Shown one piece after another: positions 6,514-17,833 of a stretch of 20,000 nucleotides of DNA. Position numbers and translations under genes: made by a program. The stretch is from Fonticula-like sp. SCN 57-25 (lineage: Eukaryota). Location of the stretch: contig MEDX01000009.1 of NCBI GenBank assembly GCA_001724245.1, positions 57,279 to 77,278 on the forward strand, written 5' to 3'. Position 1 is the first letter of the stretch. Every line of letters begins with the position of its first letter. The notes under the pieces are model-generated. The model ran no database searches and was not told the origin of the DNA. It worked only from the letters and a program-made list of their open reading frames with translations.

Positions 6514-8016
6514 ATGCCCCCCCGCCATACCGAGGAAGCCCCGGCGCCGCTCGAGAAGGAAGTCATCGCGGACACCCCTCCGGCTTCACCGATCTCAATC
6601 GCCTCGACCGAGACCGCCGCACTGCCTAGCGCGAAGGCGTGCCTCTTTGTGGCTGGGTACGGCACCGGTTTCCACTTTCCTGTTTTAGATTCTCACGATC
6701 CGTGGCGCGGTTTTTCCCCTGCCAAACAGCCTTCCCGCAAGCGTTTCGAGCAATCTTCTGGCCCAGAAGCTTCGCGAGATTTTCGAGGTCTACGGTCCTC
6801 TCCATGAGGTTAAGGTTTTGAACGACCGCCCTGGCGGCCCCTACTCGTTCGTGCACTTTGAGGTACGGCCGCCGTCCGCCGCCGCCTGCCGCGCTCCCTG
6901 GGGTTCCAACTGAGCTAACCTTTCTCGAATTTTGTAGAACGTTGCCGACGCCGCTACTGTTCTCGCCGACCGCAACCGCCCGCTTTGCATGGGCCGCGCC
7001 CTTCGTGTGGAAAAGGCCTACGTCAACCGCACACTGTTCCTGGCGCGCTTTCCTACTACGCTCACCGTCGAGGTACGCCGCGCCGCGCCGCGCGCAAACA
7101 GCCCCTGACAGCGTCGCTCTAGGAATTGACCGCCGCGATTGAGGCACACGCGCCCGTCGAGTCGGTGACCATTTGCAAGCACGTGGAGACGCAGCGCAGC
7201 AAGGGATGTGGCTTTGTCAAGTTTGCCAACCGGCCACACGCCAATCAGGCGTACCAGGTGCGTTCTGCTAGCAAGTCAGTGGCAGCCTTGATTCTAACAT
7301 TTGTGCAATAGGGCCTTCGCAACAGCTATCCCACATGGGTGGTGGAATGGTGTGCCCCCGCGCGCGACAAGGAAGCCGCGAATGCCAACCCTTATATGGT
7401 TTTCGTGGGTGGGCTGGATCCTGCCTATGTCACCAAGGAAATGTGCGCGCGCCTCTCCTAGTATACACATTCGCTCACCAACGTGTGCTTGCAGGCTCAA
7501 GGAGCGCTTTGCACCCTACGGCACCGTTGCATCCGCCGACGTGATCAGCAAGGGGAGCGGCAACCGCAGCGCCTTTGGCTTTGTTCGCTACGAGTCTGAA
7601 AGCTCGAGCGAGCTGGCCATCGACGCGCAGAACGGTACCGAGTGGTTCGGCCGCCGCATTCGCGTCCAGTACTGCGAGACCGACGAGGCAAAGATGCGCC
7701 GCAAGGAGATGGCCTCCCAGCAATTTATTCCCATCTCCGAGGTGCCGATGAGCCCGCCGCCGATCTACCGCATGATGCATTCCCCTCGGAGCATGCCCCC
7801 GCCGATTTACAGTGCGCACATCTGCCGACACCCTCTCCGACCATCGTTACTGACACATGATTTGTAGTGGAGCCCACGTCGCCGCACGCCTACGTATACT
7901 ACTCGTACCCGCCCCCTATGATGGCGGCACCGCCAGCAGTCTACTACGCGAACGATGTTCTCTACGCAGCGCCGCCGTCCCCCAGGGGGATGGGCATGGC
8001 TCCGATGCAGTATTAA
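6514..8016 (+). CDS. RIM4: Rim4/Msa1-like RNA-binding protein with three RRMs and a Pro/Tyr/Met-rich tail, 7 exons
   Basis: Exons 6514-6656, 6730-6862, 6938-7072, 7123-7257, 7312-7442, 7495-7811, 7868-8016. Blocks ACLFVAGL, VKVLNDRPGGPYSFVHF, GRALRVEKAYVNRTLFL, GCGFVKFANRPHANQAYQGLR..WVVEW, VFVGGL..VTKEMLKERFAPYG, AFGFVRYE..AIDAQNG..RIRVQYCE follow the motif order recalled for yeast Rim4. Confidence 0.8.
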
Positions 8017-8405: not shown

Positions 8406-9347
8406 ATGCTGGCGGCATCTGGACGTGCTGCAGTTCGCCGCGTCGCCGGGCGGCGCGGTGCCTCGACGCATGCTTCCCACGGTCACGGCAGCGCGCACAC
8501 TGCTGCGCCCGCGCACCCGCCGGCCCAGCACGGCGGCCGCACTGCCCTCGCCCACGAGCTCGAGGAGGAGGCCCATGCCACCGGTACTATCACACATGTG
8601 CTGCTGCCGCTGATCTTTGTGCTAACTGTCTCCTACTTTAGCGAGCACGCTCACCTGGAAGCGCATTTCGTATGTCGTCGCGCTTCCCGCCGTCGGCATT
8701 TGCGCGTACAGCTCGTTGAGCGGCCCGGCCCATGAGCCGCCGCCGTTTGAGGATTACAGCACTTTCCGCAACATCCGCAGCAAGGTACGAGCGGCTATTG
8801 TCGCGCGCTTTCATTCACTTTGTCTAACTTTTCTTGTCTTTCTTTTTTCCTTCTCTGTCTCCTTTGCCTATTTAAAGCCTTTCCCCTGGGGCTCTGGCGA
8901 GCGCAGCCTTTTCTGGAACCCGCATGTGAACCACATGGCTGGCGAGGAGGCCCACGGCGGTGCGACTTTAAAGCGGCGATCTCGGCGCATTCTAACGCAT
9001 GTTGGTTTATTTTCTTTCCTTTTGCGCTACATAGAGAGCCACGAGGAGTACCTCAACCCGATCGCTGCCTGGATCGAGTACAACCTGAATAAGGAGGAGG
9101 AGAACAAGGAGATCGCCCACGAGCACCTCCGCACCACAAAGGCCAACGCAGAGGCCAAGTACGCATATTCTTTCTATTTAATTTCCTTGCTTATATATTT
9201 GTTTTGCAGCAAGCGCTCGGTGAAGGTCTTTACGACGGCAATGAAGATGAATCACGATAACAGGTGCGAAGGAGCGTGGTATTTTTCTTTTGCTAATTTT
9301 GTGTTATTTTACCCCTTTTTTCCCTCAATATCAGCGCTTCCGCCTAA
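8406..9347 (+). CDS. COX6A: Cytochrome c oxidase subunit 6A (Cox13) with a ~70-aa C-terminal extension, 6 exons
   Basis: Exons 8406-8583, 8642-8784, 8878-8959, 9035-9158, 9210-9263, 9335-9347. Arg/Ala-rich presequence, TWKRISYVVALPAVGICAY transmembrane segment, [23 protein letters not shown] signature, then further in-frame exons to TAA 9345-9347 (last exon least certain). Confidence 0.88.
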
Positions 9348-9602
9348 GCCAACTTTCCGAATACAAAGGGAGGCTTATTTTTGCCATGGGAACCTCTCGA
9401 TGGCGTTTTTACAGTAATGGTTGCGATTCGACAATATATGATTCAAAACAGCGATTGCCCTTTAATGAATTTCACATAAAGCGTCACTTTTTTATATGTT
9501 TTGTGCACGATTATGCGCGTTTGGGTGCCGTGAAAGCGCGTGACAAAGCGGAAATCCAATGTTTTGCATGTCAAGGTGACGCGTCAGAGCATTCCTTGCA
9601 AT

Positions 9603-9721: not shown

Positions 9722-11776
9722 ATGCTGAGCGGCAAGTTCACCTCCAAGCTGCGGATGCGCAAGTCGCAGTCCACCTCTGATCTTATCAGCGGGCCATTCA
9801 ACTTTGAGCACGGTGTCCATATTCATTATGATCCGGTTGAGAAGAGCTACACGGTACGCCGAGATTGGTGCCCCACCTCCCGTCTCTAACGCGCGCTCCT
9901 TTCTGCGTGTTTTGCAGGGATTTCCCGATGTGTGGCACGAGGCGGTGCCGGAAGGGACAAAGGCCGAGCTCGCGAGCACGCAAGAGCTCAAGGTCGGGTT
10001 GGAGGTGCCAAAGTTTTCTGAAGGTACGCGTGCGCTCATGGCACTGGTCCGATCGTTGCTAAACAAGCCAGCAGCGACCAAGCGGCCAAAGGCATCCGGC
10101 GTTGGCCGTCTAAAGATCAGCGAGCCGTTCAATATGACACACAAGGTCCACGTCAACTTTAACGCGGAAACGGGCTTTCAGGTACTTTTCCTTCTTCCCG
10201 TGCTGATGTTTTGCTCATTGCCGTGTTTCAGGGGCTGCCCGACGACTGGCATCACCTGCTCAAAGGCTCCGGCGTTTCAGAGGACGAGATCGCCGCGACG
10301 AACCCGCGCGTGCTCGAGAGCGTAATGCGGCAGTTTCACAAGCGTTTTGAGAGCCAGGGCAGCGGCGGGACCGGCGAGCGCCGCTCCGCCACGCCGCCGC
10401 TTCCAACGACCGCGCCACCGCAGACCCTGCTGCCCACGTTGACAACGCTGCGGCGATCGCGCTCGGCAGAGATTATTGTGTACGCCACGATATTCTTTTG
10501 CATTGTTCGAAAGACGCCGAAAAAGTAACATTTGTTGTGATTTTAAGGCGTAATTTGGAGCTTGAGGCCGAGCAAGAATACCTCGACCTGGACGAAGACA
10601 CCCCCGACATGCCGCTCTCATCAATCCAGTTTAACGTAATGAACGACGCGTCCCTCCTTGGTGCGTGCATCTTTACTTGTGTTTCTGTGCTGACATGAGC
10701 GCTCTTTTTCAGACGGGCTCGTCATCAAGGCCGACCCGGCCGCCATTTACCACGACTGGGATAAGATCGGCGAGGGCGGGTCGGGAACCGTCTACCGCGC
10801 CTTTGACAAGCAAAAGAAGCCCGTACGTCTTTTGTGCAAAATATTACCCATTTTGGGGCCATTTTCGGATCATTTTTTGTGTTTATTCATGCTGTTTCCC
10901 GCGCCCAGGTTGCCGTCAAGGTGATCCCGATCAACAAGCGGTCCGAATTCCGCGTCATCCACAATGAGATCCAGGTGCTTCGGAGCAGCTGGCACCCCAA
11001 CATTGTCACCTACTACGACAGCTACCTTACAGACACTTCACTTAGCGTACGCCTGGTTGGAATAAAAGTCGGTTTCTGACGCTTGCTGCAGCTGGTTATT
11101 GAGTTTATGGACGGCGCCGTGCTGACGCAGCTGCTGTGCAATGGATGGATGCAGGAGCCGCAGGTCGCTTTTGTTTGCCGCGAAGTTCTCTCTGCGCTCG
11201 CCTACATGCACTCGTTCGACCGCATCCACCGCGACATAAAGAGCGACAACATCCTCGTGACCGCCCACGGCCACGTCAAGCTTGGTACGTATTTTTTTGC
11301 CATGTTTTTGCTCTGCTGACGCGCCGCCGCAGCCGACTTTGGGTACTGCGCGCAGCTGACGAACCTGACGCGGCAGCGCAACTCGGTCGTCGGGACGCCG
11401 TACTGGATGGCGCCCGAGCTGGTGCGCGGGCAGGACTATGGCCTCGCCGTCGATATTTGGAGTCTCGGCATCGCCGCCATCGAGATGGCCGAGAGCGAAC
11501 CGCCGTACCTCGAGCTTCCACCGCTTCGCGTACGACGTCTTGGATATTTTGTGTTTACTGACGCTTTTTTAGGCGCTGTTTCTTATTGCGACGAGGGGGA
11601 GCCCGACGCTCGAGGAGCCGTGCCGCTTCTCGGATTCGTTCCGCGACTTTGTCGGGCTCGCCACGAGCACGGACCCGTGCGCGCGGCCAGACGCGACGAC
11701 GCTGCTCAAGCACGCGTTCCTCGAGGGCGCCGGGCAGCCGGCCTGCATCGTGGAGCTGCTCGATATGCTAAAGTGA
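9722..11776 (+). CDS. PAK: p21-activated (STE20/PAK family) Ser/Thr kinase with two CRIB/PBD domains, 10 exons
   Basis: Exons 9722-9853, 9918-10023, 10072(or 10075)-10181, 10232-10479, 10548-10660, 10713-10822, 10909-11046, 11092-11284, 11333-11529, 11573-11776. CRIB1 [16 protein letters not shown]2 [18 protein letters not shown]; kinase [63 protein letters not shown]. Confidence 0.93.
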
Positions 11777-11985
11777 TGCGGGAGGGTCGCATCTCACCAA
11801 CAGAACAGACAGTTTAGCCACAGAATGTTCGCCTTTTTTGCCGACCATTTAGAGTCGTTTGTACTGCCCTTTTTGCACATGTTTCGCGCCTACCCTTTAT
11901 TGTGAGTATTTTGCACAATATATAATTTTTTGCATTGATCTTTTGCCGGAACTGTCCGGTTTTGCAGCCCACCTTGCGCACTTCG

Positions 11986-12043: not shown

Positions 12044-12175
12044 CGCGCGTTTGACAAGGCTTGGAAACACAACTTGGCGCGACGATTCAGGGAACGGTGG
12101 CGAGCGATTAGACACGAGATCCCTGTTTTGGACCAGTACAGCTCGCTGCCTTTGTTATCTAGTTGATTCGACGCC

Positions 12176-14670
12176 ATGGCGCCGATCACGCTAAAGATCA
12201 AGGGCAAGAACTTTATGCCGTTCTTTGAGATGGACACGGAGGATGAGCTCCAGAAAACGTGGCGGGTTTGCACTCGTGTAAAGGACTCTCTCGAGAACGG
12301 CAGCCGGCTAGAGAACCTCAGCTGGCGGTTATGGCATCTTCACTACAAGCAGAAGCGCGATGTTATCTACAAGAACAAGTCGATAGCGGCCGTTCTGGCG
12401 AGCAAGTTTGACCCCATCCCGGAGTTGGCGGGAGACCGGCGAAAGAAGCCGCAGACCGCCGCCGCCACGTCAGAGGGCGCGCCAGTGCCCGCGGACGCTG
12501 CCGCAACGTTGGCCGCTGCGGGGAAAAGCACCGCCGCTGTACCACCGCAGTCGGTGCCGGTGCCCGCCGCGATCAATCCTCAGACATCTGCCGTGGTACG
12601 CATGATTCCCATCGCCTAATTGATGCTGACGTTTCCTTTTGATGCAGCAGGCCGAGGAGCGCCGCGACGACTCGCCGTTCCCGCACCAATTTAACTCTCA
12701 CCCCGGGAATGTAAATATCCATTTCACGTCGGACGGCGCCATCTCCGTGTCGGGCGAGGTCGAGGATCTTTTGGGCGGGCTCGGTAGCACGCTCTTTTCG
12801 GATCCGCTCACATTCGACTTTGAAATTCACCCGCACACAGAGGTACGCTTGTTATATGTTTTCTATGGCAAAATATCAAGTTTTGTATTGTTTATGTGGT
12901 CTTTTATGGTCACCTTGAAGAGTACTCTTGAGTTCTTTACTCTAAGTACTCTGTATTCTTGTCTTGGTTCCACTCTATGTTCTACTCTGTACTTTAACCA
13001 GCTGTTTACTCTATACTTTACTCTATGTTTCACTGTATCCCTGTTCCCTTTCCTAACTCTTCCTTAGCAAAACTACTGGCCAGACATGTCGAGCAGCCTC
13101 GCCGCCCCCCCCGCCCCCCCCGCCGCCCCCTCTCCCTCCTTCCTCGCCCCCGCTCGCCCGCCGCCGCCGCCGCCACTCCCGCCGCTTTCCATGATGACGT
13201 CACAGCAGCAGCCCACTGACGCGTCGTCAGCACTTGCTGCTGCCCAGGCGCCCATCGCGGCGGCGGCGCAGCCAATGGGAGGCGTTGATTTGTTGGCGCC
13301 GTTTATTTCGCCGGCGTTGCTCGAGGCGGCTGACGCGGCAGAAATTCAAAGAGTGCGTTGTTATATTGGTGTATATGTGAGTGTGTCATGTGTGAGTATA
13401 TTATCATGTATCATTTCATGTTGTGTGATCATGTCATGTTGTTTATCATGTATCATGTCTTGGTATCATGTGTGCCTCATCATGTGTGATAGTGTTCATG
13501 TACCTATGTTTTCCATTCATCTTGTTCACCCACTCACACGCTGACTCAGCAAATGAATGTCCCCGTGATGCACCGCTTCCGCCCCCACGACCTCTCCCTC
13601 CCCTCCTCCCCCTTCTACCTCCCCCAATCCCCCCAACAACAGCAGCAGCAACAAGCCCTCTACAACATGCAGGTCATGCACGCCAAGGACCCATCCTCCC
13701 CCTTCATGACGTCATCAACCAGCCCACGTGGCGCGCGCCTTTCCCTTGGCGGGTCACCGAAAGCGCCGCCATTGGACGGCTCGCTGTCGTGCGTCAACTG
13801 CGGCGCCACAACGACGCCGCTGTGGCGCCGCGCGACCAATGGCGGCGCACTTTGCAATGCGTGTGGACTTTACCAAAAGCAGCATCAGCAAGATAGGCCG
13901 CGTCAGTCGCCGTCGTCGCGGCGGGAAAAGGAAAAGGCCGAGGCGCAGACGGAGACGGCGGTGTGCTCGAATTGTAGGACGACGACGACGCCGCTGTGGA
14001 GGCGGAGTGAGGGGGGGAGTGGGGCAATGTTGTGTAATGGTGCGAAAATGAAGAGGGAAGGGAGGAAATATGTTATGTTTGTAGTGGGAAAAGGAATTAT
14101 TGTTGTGTTTGAAAGGGAAAAGGAAAAAATAGTGTAGTATTTGTAGAGGGAAAAGGAAAATATTGTTGTGTTTGTTGTGGGAAATTATGTTGTGTTATTA
14201 TTACTTTAGTGTTGGCTTGTCATGTTGTTGTGCTTGTAATGGGTAATTTTTTACGTTCTTGTAATGATGACTATCTTGTGATAATGACTATCTTGTGATG
14301 ATATTGCTTTCTTGATATGTTGATATTCCATCTTTTTCTTTTGTGTTGTTCGAATGCTGACGACTTTTCAGCGTGCGGACTTTACCGCAAGCTTCACAAT
14401 GACGACCGCCCAATCTCAATGAAGACTGACGTCATCAAAAAACGGCAGCGGTACGAGCCGGGTGGCGGCGGACCCGGTGGAAAGCGCGGGAAGCGCGAGG
14501 CATCATCTTCGCCCGTGCTCGCCGCCGACGCTGCCACGAATGGGAATCACCTTAGGAGCATAAGGCCGACGGGAGATGCGCATGTAAAGATGGAGCAGCA
14601 GTACATGGATGCGGCGATGGCGGTGGCGCCGCAGCAGGCGGCTGATGGCGCACTGCGGCCAGCATCATGA
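12176..14670 (+). CDS. GATA transcription factor with an N-terminal DUF1752 (AreA/Gat1-type) motif and two GATA zinc fingers, 5 exons
   Basis: Exons 12176-12595, 12648(or 12651)-12842, 13068-13352, 13550-14039, 14372-14670. [26 protein letters not shown]; finger 1 [22 protein letters not shown]; finger 2 [44 protein letters not shown], split by intron 14040-14371. Confidence 0.92.
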
Positions 14671-14924: not shown

Positions 14925-17833
14925 ATGGCCCATCTTTCAACGGGAGCGATCAATGTCGGCATCATCCGCGACCTTGCGCGGCGCGCCTTGATAGATGCGC
15001 TGGACACGGTGCGTTCCGTTTTCTCTTTTTAATATATACGGCTTTTGCTGATGCTCGGCCGGGATTAGGTGAGCGGCAAGAAGGCCATGGTGCTGGACTC
15101 GCTGCTGAGCGGCCCGCTCGGCCTCGTCTCCGAGTACTCGATGCTCAAGGAGCACGGCGTCGAGAACGTGTACCACCTGCAGTCGGGCCGCCTGGACACG
15201 ACCCAGCGCAACATTGTCTACATTTGCCGGCCGGAAATGATCTACATGAAGTACATTGCCGGTACGCCCCTTTCGCCCTGGCAAGTGGCGATGACTGACG
15301 CGATGCCGCCGCTGCGCAGATCATATTCATATTCACAACAAGGCGGGCGACAATAGCAAAAAGTATTATGTTTTCTTTGTCCCCCGCCGCTCCCTCATCT
15401 GCGAGCGCGTGCTCGAGGAGGAAGGCGTGTTTGGCAACGTGACGATCAGCTCGCTCAACATGGATCTCTTCCCCATCGACAACGACATCCTTTCGCTCGA
15501 GCTCGACAGTTCCTTCCGAGAGCTCTTTTTGGTACATTTTATATCTAATTTTATGCTTTTTTGTTCATATTTTCTGACGGTGTTTTTTATTTCAGGATGG
15601 CGATCGGACGTCGCTGTACTACGTGGCGCGTTCTCTGATGAGCATGCAGTCACTGTACGGCGTGATCCCCAAGATCTACGGCAAGGGCCACTGCGCGCGC
15701 GTCGTCGCCGACATGATTTTGCGCATGCGGCGGGAAGTCGCGAGCGAGGAGAACGCGATCGCGCCAGAGATCGACTCGATCATCCTCATCGACCGCATCG
15801 CGGTACGCACCATTGGATCTCGCATCGCAGCGGCATCTCATATGGGAAATGATTATAGGACCCTATTACGCCGATGCTGCAGCAGCTCACTTATGAAGGC
15901 CTTATCGACGAAGTGTTTGGCATCCAAAACAGTGCGTGATCTTTTCTCTTTTCATGATCTTAAGCATGATCCCTTGCATGATCTTCATGATCTTGATGAT
16001 CTGCATGTGATCTCTTGACCATTTTCTTTCCTTCCTTTTCTTTCCCTTTTCTTTCCCTTTTCTTTCCCCTTTTCTTCCCATTTCCTCTGCTTACCCTTCT
16101 TTTCAGCCCATGTTGATCTTGAACCGGCGATCACTGGCCAAAAAGAGCGCCGCAAGATCCCCCTCAACTCTGGCGACTCCCTCTACGCCGACATCCGCGA
16201 CCGCAACTTTGCCGTCATCGGCCCCATCCTCAACAAGTCCGCCAAGCGCATCAACGCCGAGTACGAAGAGCGCCACTCGGCCAAGACGATCTCGCAGATG
16301 CGCGACTTTGTCGGCAAGCTCGGGTCGATCCAGCAGGAGCATCAGTCACTGAGGATTCGTGCGACATTTTTTTGAGTGGTTTGGAATTATGGGTTAATGG
16401 TATATTGGATAGATACGAATGTGGCAGAGCAGATTATGCTGCTGACGAGGGAGCCAGAGTTTCATCGCAGGTTGGAGGTTGAGCAGAGTACGTCATGAGA
16501 TGAATGGGAATTGGGAGTGTATGGGGAAGAATATGGGGATGAGAGTGAGAGTGGATATGGGAAAGAGTATGAGTATGAATGTGGATATGAGTATGAGTAT
16601 GAGTATGAGTATGAGTGTGGATATGAGTATGAGTATGAGTGTGAGTATGAGTATGAGTGTGAGTATGAGTATGAGTATGGGTATGAGTGTGGATATGAGT
16701 ATGAGTATGAGTGTGAGTATGAGTATGAGTGTGAGTATGGGTATGAGTATGAGAACATGTATGAGTATGAGTACATGTATGAGTATGAGTATGAGATCAT
16801 GTATGAGAACATGTATGAGTACATGTATGAGAACATGTATGAGTACATGTATGAGTATGAGTGTCTGTATGATTATGATGACCATCAGTGTTCCAGTTGA
16901 TGACCATGACTACCATGACTATTTTCTGTTCCTCTTCCCCTTACTAACCCCAATTCTTCCCACTAGACCTCCTCGCCGGCATTGACAGCAGCGTCAACAC
17001 CGACTACATCGAAGAGCTCATCCACCGCCAGACCCCCTTCCCCAAGATGATCCGCCTCCTCTGCCTCTACTCCTGCGTCAACAACGGCATCAAGCCCAAA
17101 GTACTCGACGCCCTCAAGCGCGACATCCTCCAAACATACGGCTATGACAAAATGTTTACCCTCAACAACCTCGAAAAGGCCGGCCTGGTAAAGAAGGCCG
17201 ACGCGCGCAATCCGTACCCGCAGCTGCGCAAGGCGTTCCGGCTGAGCGTCGACGACATTGACGAGAAGGAGCCGAATGATATTGCGTATGCGTACTCGGG
17301 GTATGCGCCGCTGTCGGTGAGGCTCGTGCAGGCGTGCTTTGGGAAGGGGGGGTGGAGGGGGCAGGAGGACGCGATGAGGTTGATTCCGGGGCCGGCGTTT
17401 GAGGAGGTGCAGCAGCTTCCCGCCGGACTTCAGCCAAAGAGTGCGTTGTGGGTAATTTGAGGGTAATTTGAGTCATTTTGTTTCATTTTGTGTGTTTTTG
17501 TGTCTTTTTTAACCCTTTTTGTGTCATTCGCCTGTCTTTTTTGACCCTTTTTGGGGTCTTTTTGGGTCATTCGTCTGTCTTTTTCTGCTCCTTTTTGTGC
17601 CTTTTCCCTTTTTAACCACCTTTTATACAGAGAACTTTGGGTCTGCGACGGGCACCAAGACGACCATTGTGTACTTTTTGGGCGGGTGCACGTACGCCGA
17701 GATCGCCGCGCTGCGCTTCCTCGAGACGCAGAGCGAGGGGCAGCGCGAGTTCATCATCGCCACGACAAAGCTCATCAACGGAAACACGCTCGTCGAGAGC
17801 ATCATTGAGCCCATTGACAACAAGCTCGTCTAG
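14925..17833 (+). CDS. VPS33A: VPS33A, Sec1/Munc18-family subunit of HOPS/CORVET, 9 exons
   Basis: Exons 14925-15008, 15069-15261, 15320-15531, 15596-15802, 15859-15931, 16107-16358, 16413-16487, 16967-17440, 17631-17833. MAHLSTGAINV, GPLGLVSEYSMLKEHGVE, FFVPRRSLICERVLEEEGV, IPKIYGKG, LIDR..DPITPMLQQLTYEGLIDEVFGI, YADIRDRNF, PNDIAYAYSGYAPLSVRLVQ, YFLGGCTYAEIAALRFL. Confidence 0.95.
16540..16865. repeat. Intronic (GAGTAT)n hexamer microsatellite with GAGTGT/GGATAT/GAGAAC/GAGTAC variants
   Basis: Tandem gagtat units inside the 479-nt VPS33 intron 16488-16966; explains the YEYE, MSMS, YSYS and ILIL ORFs. Confidence 0.95.

Follow-up and report, generated by a model that had tools for sequence, protein, structure and literature searches.

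A COX6A gene with a probable lineage-specific helical extension in a fungus-like soil eukaryote

The 20,000-nt stretch of DNA analysed here (hereafter, the window) contains, on its forward strand, what by its sequence is a genuine nuclear COX6A/Cox13 gene, the open frame of which runs on well beyond the conserved C-terminal motif of the family. We consider it probable (about 0.6 by our estimate) that the added part, about 70 residues long, is a helical extension located in the intermembrane space and specific to the lineage of this fungus-like soil eukaryote. In the extension, a short acidic linker would lead into a long helix, amphipathic where it begins, and the end would be more basic; the whole may act as an extra structural arm. 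Such an arm would pack either on complex IV, at its intermembrane-space face close to the cleft between COX1, COX2, COX3, and COX6A, or on a neighbouring complex; this putative landing cleft is the binding site of HIGD/Rcf and NDUFA4 and, in bovine complex IV, the site of dimerisation.

The product of the gene, 197 aa in length, is encoded in a single open frame by six spliced exons (8406–8583, 8642–8784, 8878–8959, 9035–9158, 9210–9263, and 9335–9347; all features described here are on the forward strand), from an ATG at 8406 to a TAA stop at 9345–9347. All five introns are of the GT..AG type, 51–93 nt long, with a GC content of 0.27–0.47, compared to 0.48–0.76 in the exons, and four of the five contain a CTAAY box. 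Exon 1, which extends from the ATG to the donor GT at 8584 and has a GC content of 0.76, encodes an N-terminal region rich in Arg, Ala, and His that has no Pfam match; from its composition only, it is presumed to comprise a mitochondrial presequence and the matrix part of the protein. Exon 2 (8642–8784) encodes the COX6A transmembrane helix and the conserved stretch after it, and aligns to the COX6A1, COX6A2, and Cox13 chains in the PDB; the hydropathy maximum of the 197-aa product, calculated in 19-residue windows, lies at aa 67–71. Exon 3 (8878–8959) encodes the COX6A C-terminal motif PFPWGSG...LFWNPHVNH, which is covered by both the PF02046 and the PDB alignments and corresponds to positions 91–110 of the 112 positions of the Pfam profile. 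The motif is followed by M-A-G and an acidic linker, such that the final 25 nt of exon 3 already belong to the extension: the ATG codon directly after NPHVNH has its A at position 8935, and the stop finishes at base 9347.

The remainder of the extension is encoded by three small exons. Intron 3 (8960–9034), 75 nt long, has a CTAAC box 42 nt before its 3' end and precedes exon 4 (9035–9158), which encodes the about 41 aa, with the amphipathic start NPIAAWIEYNL, that form the core of the tail. Intron 4 (9159–9209; 51 nt) separates exon 4 from exon 5 (9210–9263; 18 tail codons), and intron 5 (9264–9334; 71 nt) separates the latter from exon 6 (9335–9347), which contributes the last 4 codons and the TAA stop. 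Introns 2, 3, and 4 (8785–8877, 8960–9034, and 9159–9209) all have lengths divisible by three and contain no in-frame stop, and therefore the stop-to-stop frame 8626–9417 is open across them for 263 codons; consequently, with or without splicing of intron 3, the frame has no stop after the COX6A motif. Because this frame reads through introns, prokaryote-style gene callers have deposited two public ORF calls of the same locus, P0002 (160 aa) and P0003 (233 aa), in which exon and intron residues are mixed. No tandem repeats were found between positions 8000 and 10,000, and an Rfam scan of the entire window returned no families.

The assignment to COX6A draws on several lines of comparison. The read-through frame matches Pfam PF02046 with 34.4 bits against a cut-off of 25 (E = 3.2e-8), and 20 distinct COX6A/Cox13 sequences in the PDB were matched at E ≤ 1, with mouse COX6A1 as the best (E = 9.1e-10) and fungal Cox13 among the best matches. 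As in known members of the family, the product has a single hydrophobic segment, the membrane helix, followed by the motif FPWG.G..LF.NP.VN, here in the form FPWG.G...LFWNPHVN. What sets it apart is the continuation past this motif. In 18 of the 20 PDB chains, the motif is the best-matching stretch and the chain ends 2–16 residues beyond it, in agreement with the statement in the initial annotation that known COX6A proteins end shortly after this point; the remaining two chains total only 84 and 100 aa. Here, by contrast, 71 residues follow the motif, encoded by the three additional small exons together with the end of exon 3, and both the proposed run-on of about 70 aa through canonical splice sites and the very peptide given in the annotation are reproduced by our gene model. 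The solved chains span 72–131 aa (n = 20), against 197 aa for the product, a comparison in which the PDB chains may lack the N-terminal end of the natural precursor, the C-terminal count being unaffected. The 71-residue tail is a variation of architecture and no ground for placing the protein outside the COX6A family. None of the 20 solved COX6A/Cox13 sequences bears such a tail, and among the open-access articles retrieved by full-text search, judged by title and the start of the abstract, we found no description of an extended COX6A or of a COX6A–NDUFB5 chimera.

Transcription and splicing of the tail are documented by a 151-nt contig from a soil metatranscriptome that is 100% identical to positions 9074–9158 and 9210–9263 and skips the 51-nt intron 4. 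The exon 4–5 join (9158|9210) is thus seen in processed RNA, with 0 mismatches across exon 5. After position 9263, the contig bears 12 extra letters that equal 9335–9346, the start of exon 6; the exon 5–6 join is indicated by this 12-letter overhang only. The contig begins within exon 4, and so covers two of the three tail junctions, leaving out 8959|9035. It comes from one RNA run, which contains 7% of the sampled words and in which exons 1–3 are uncovered, a circumstance that is uninformative either way. The spliced tail that had been proposed from the DNA is therefore borne out in RNA for the join of exons 4 and 5 and for 12 letters of exon 6, the junction of exons 3 and 4 being outside the covered part.

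This uncovered junction has a peculiarity of its own. Intron 3 finishes in a tandem acceptor, TAGAGAG (window positions 9028–9040). Splicing to the first AG, which has the best pyrimidine tract (0.80) and lets the exon begin at 9035, preserves the tail frame; were the exon to begin at 9037 or 9039, the frame would shift and the protein would stop 16–18 residues later. The tandem acceptor could provide a tail-less COX6A isoform.

To identify relatives of the tail, the 75-aa read-through of exon 4, intron 4, and exon 5 was used as the query in an exhaustive HMMER search of 1.84 billion representative sequences. Only three proteins were detected at E ≤ 0.001, namely, the locus itself, the homologous tail exon P0005, and a repetitive 308-aa protein (E = 7.4e-4), and we set the last of these aside as apparently spurious. 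P0005 shares 28 identical residues out of 57 aligned with the window's tail (49%; E = 1.5e-8). The ORF call comprises 101 aa, on a contig of 1,537 nt, and the likeness ends where intron 4 of the window begins. The tail frame is conserved at the protein level in P0005, and therefore the tail is translated. In another relative, the COX6A portion is represented by two cluster mates, P0004 and P0007, called as ORFs on contigs that measure 1,685 and 4,936 nt; they score 41.7 and 42.5 bits, respectively, against PF02046, and read past the motif with the same H-M-A-G and acidic run. The COX6A part (P0004 and P0007) and the tail part (P0005) are on different contigs from different sources, and the fusion of the two in relatives is, on this evidence, probable.

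Two sequences of the tail are known, so its conservation is that of one pair. The detection of only three proteins in the exhaustive search fits a tail sequence that would be young and restricted to a lineage. Word-index searches for further relatives of the tail or of the COX6A part yielded only P0002, P0003, P0004 (with P0007), and P0005. A pattern scan of metagenomes produced 72 matches, none of which was confirmed, and the metagenome scan with a degenerate DNA pattern for W-N-P-H-V-N-H-M-A produced none. Searches of the ESM Atlas gave no usable match for the window's exon 4 and, for the P0005 tail, only bacterial hypothetical proteins at 0.79–0.81, which is chance level.

The tail is hydrophilic (GRAVY -1.0), has a pI of 5.4, and contains neither a cysteine nor a second hydrophobic segment. 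Given the alignment of the two sequences, AlphaFold2 models exon 4 as one helix (residues 8–39) with a mean pLDDT of 87.9, rising to about 94 within the helix. The hydrophobic moment is 1.1–1.2 over the first ~10 residues of the helix and about 0.35–0.75 thereafter, and the only clear amphipathic stretch of the tail is the start of exon 4, around NPIAAWIEYNL. In solved complex IV, COX6A spans the inner membrane once and its C-terminus is located in the intermembrane space, so the tail would be expected to project there. A review, in the passages concerned with COX6A1, places this subunit on a cleft formed with COX1, COX2, and COX3, to which HIGD2A and NDUFA4 bind and through which the crystal dimer forms, and mentions contacts between Rcf2 and Cox13 in yeast (PMC12894743). 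Given the position of COX6A1 on this cleft, the intermembrane-space face of complex IV would be the simplest landing site for the tail.

Two other features of the linker region attracted attention and were discarded. The Met after NPHVNH might be taken for the relic start codon of a once separate gene; it aligns with the conserved hydrophobic residue that mammalian COX6A has at this place. A His/Glu metal site in the linker was likewise dismissed, given that the relative carries D, S, or A at the respective positions.

The initial annotation went further than the extension itself, reading the tail as akin to the complex I subunit NDUFB5 and the protein as a chimera that docks on complex I. According to this explanation, which we regard as unlikely, the tail has its origin in the intermembrane-space helices of NDUFB5 (NUUM), or imitates them, and, by sitting against the ND4/ND2 face of the membrane arm, ties complex IV covalently to complex I. 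The likeness noticed by eye is indeed recovered by HMMER, and better in P0005 than in the window, but it never becomes significant (E = 0.69 to 4). A profile built from the two tails and compared with the 177,635 distinct PDB sequences has a single match, to residues 109–148 of mouse NDUFB5 (E = 4; 10.8 bits). When the tail part of P0005 (42 residues), a sequence that the annotation had not seen, was searched against the PDB, five sequences were listed; the best natural match was human NDUFB5, which appeared twice (E = 0.69, 13.7 bits, and E = 1.3), with 15 identities over 38 aligned positions (query positions 4–41) and one gap. Among the positions at which one tail departs from the other, 5 have the NDUFB5 residue in the relative and 2 have it in the window, by our own count from the printed alignments. 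The shared elements amount to a short pattern, E-x-aromatic-K-x-P-I-S-x-W-I-x-x-N, and a later EKAE, and in NDUFB5/SGDH (NUUM in Yarrowia) these lie past the membrane helix. From the portions of the review PMC8762328 that deal with this subunit, NDUFB5 has a membrane helix of its own between ND4 and ND5 and a matrix N-terminal coil, and on the intermembrane-space side, where the matched segment sits, it has a short helix that lies over NDUFB11/ND4 and, after it, a long one that follows the membrane arm. The same portions describe plant P2 as providing the long helix with no membrane anchor, and therefore the long-helix element can exist apart from the NDUFB5 membrane helix (PMC8762328). Plant P2 is thus a precedent for the supply of the long helix by another polypeptide, and it differs from the present case in being a free subunit that is not fused to a complex IV subunit.

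The same searches furnish the arguments against a link to NDUFB5. All the E-values for this subunit exceed 0.1, and the P0005 tail matches an unrelated Legionella Dot/Icm effector twice (E = 1.4; 12.7 bits against 13.7 bits for NDUFB5) and a de novo designed repeat protein above NDUFB5 (E = 0.036). The window's own exon 4, compared with the 177,635 PDB sequences, does not retrieve NDUFB5 at E ≤ 10, and its only match is a designed helical repeat protein (E = 4e-4, summed over repeats). The strongest PDB score of the tail is that of the designed helical repeat protein 7ue2_A, which shows that the tail reads like an idealised helix and that weak matches to helical segments carry little weight. 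The initial annotation had named the lack of a significant profile match as grounds for refutation, and by this rule its proposal fails: the Pfam family NDUF_B5 (PF09781) was not matched at E ≤ 10 by any of the four tail-bearing queries (exon 4, the 263-aa frame, the 109-aa tail read-through, and P0005), with the proviso that the HMMER filters hide most matches above about 0.1–0.3, so that a very weak likeness may escape. The PDB contains NDUFB5 chains from Yarrowia, insects, and other organisms. Fungal, insect, and plant NDUFB5 chains are nevertheless absent from every search result, and matches to mammalian chains alone are odd for a fungus-like organism. With respect to architecture, the only membrane helix of the protein is that of COX6A, and the tail has neither a membrane helix, nor a matrix part, nor the proline turn that separates the two helices of NDUFB5; the gap in the HMMER alignment falls at this proline-containing turn, where AlphaFold2 gives an unbroken helix. 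Moreover, COX6A is not known to face complex I in the mammalian respirasome. Overall, real relatedness to NDUFB5, or mimicry of it, seems doubtful to us, and a tie between complex IV and complex I through the tail is to be considered improbable. The most specific version, in which the COX6A C-terminus supplies or duplicates the short and long helices of NDUFB5 and leashes complex IV covalently to the complex I arm, in a respirasome unlike the mammalian one, likewise has the odds well against it. The shared intermembrane-space side and the function coincide, and for this reason the NDUFB5 proposal stays alive as a lead. Two chance hits from these searches were rejected: IDO1, with E of about 1.3 in the comparison of the 75-aa read-through with the PDB, in which a designed repeat protein was also listed, and DUF5752, with E = 0.03 on the tail read-through, which scores below its cut-off and matches partly on intron-coded residues.

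Alternatively, the tail might make contact from one complex IV monomer to another or from complex IV to complex III, a role that we view as possible but rather unlikely. The position of COX6A1 on the dimer-forming cleft that binds HIGD2A and NDUFA4 and the Rcf2–Cox13 contacts in yeast, as given in the relevant passages of PMC12894743, are in keeping with such a role, as is the prediction of a long helix. Against it, this helix has an amphipathic character in its first ~10 residues only, shows no regular heptad pattern by eye, and has no PDB match to any chain of complex III or IV. A more mundane possibility is that the tail is an artefact of the gene model, such that the mature COX6A mRNA lacks an in-frame tail, either through use of an acceptor 2 or 4 nt downstream or through exons 4–6 belonging to another transcript. 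The position of the exon 3–4 junction outside the RNA coverage and the frame-breaking acceptors of TAGAGAG leave room for this explanation, but it appears highly improbable: the in-frame acceptor is the first AG past the branch box and has the best pyrimidine tract, exons 4–6 have no start codon until the last 10 codons of exon 5, the RNA shows these exons spliced in the tail frame through to the stop, P0005 conserves this frame as protein, and the relative's COX6A likewise continues beyond the motif. We favour a lineage-specific helical extension of COX6A, against which one result must be counted, namely, that the best natural PDB match of the P0005 tail is a complex I subunit and not one of complex IV.

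Extensions of accessory subunits are the main route by which respiratory complexes acquire lineage-specific contacts, and the arm of about 70 residues that COX6A carries here, conserved and predicted to be helical, has no counterpart among the 20 solved sequences. If the arm binds complex I, a fused subunit module would for the first time be seen to join two respiratory complexes, and the function of the supercomplex would become genetically testable through truncation of the tail. If it packs on complex IV only, the extension would be an ordinary lineage-specific embellishment. Among complex IV subunits known to tether supercomplexes, the closest parallel is COX7A2L/SCAF1, a paralogue of a complex IV subunit that links complexes III and IV physically. 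It differs from the present protein in subunit family and in partners, and it makes the connection through two binding regions of one small protein, with no domain appended from a subunit of another complex.

The genes around COX6A are ordinary housekeeping genes, and no complex I gene is present within the 20,000-nt window. The neighbours encode a Rabenosyn/FYVE protein, a short-chain dehydrogenase, MYG1, an RRM protein, a PAK-type kinase, a GATA factor, a Sec1-family protein, and a hexokinase. The gene downstream of COX6A (9724–11820) encodes the kinase, which is of the PAK/Ste20 type and apparently has two CRIB/PBD motifs followed by the protein kinase domain; one of these motifs has a PBD match in Pfam (E = 3e-7), and the other was seen by eye only. 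The GATA factor gene (12167–14137) combines two GATA fingers with an AreA-type N-terminal motif (PF08550; E = 2.9e-13), a motif typical of fungi. This motif is the best clue in the window to the affinity of the organism and, taken with the CTAAC-type boxes of the introns, suggests a fungus or a close relative. Finally, the region of the Sec1-family gene contains a long, imperfect microsatellite of the (CA/TG)n type (16434–16909), which is probably intronic and would read as His-Thr or Tyr-Ser/Glu-Tyr repeats in several frames.
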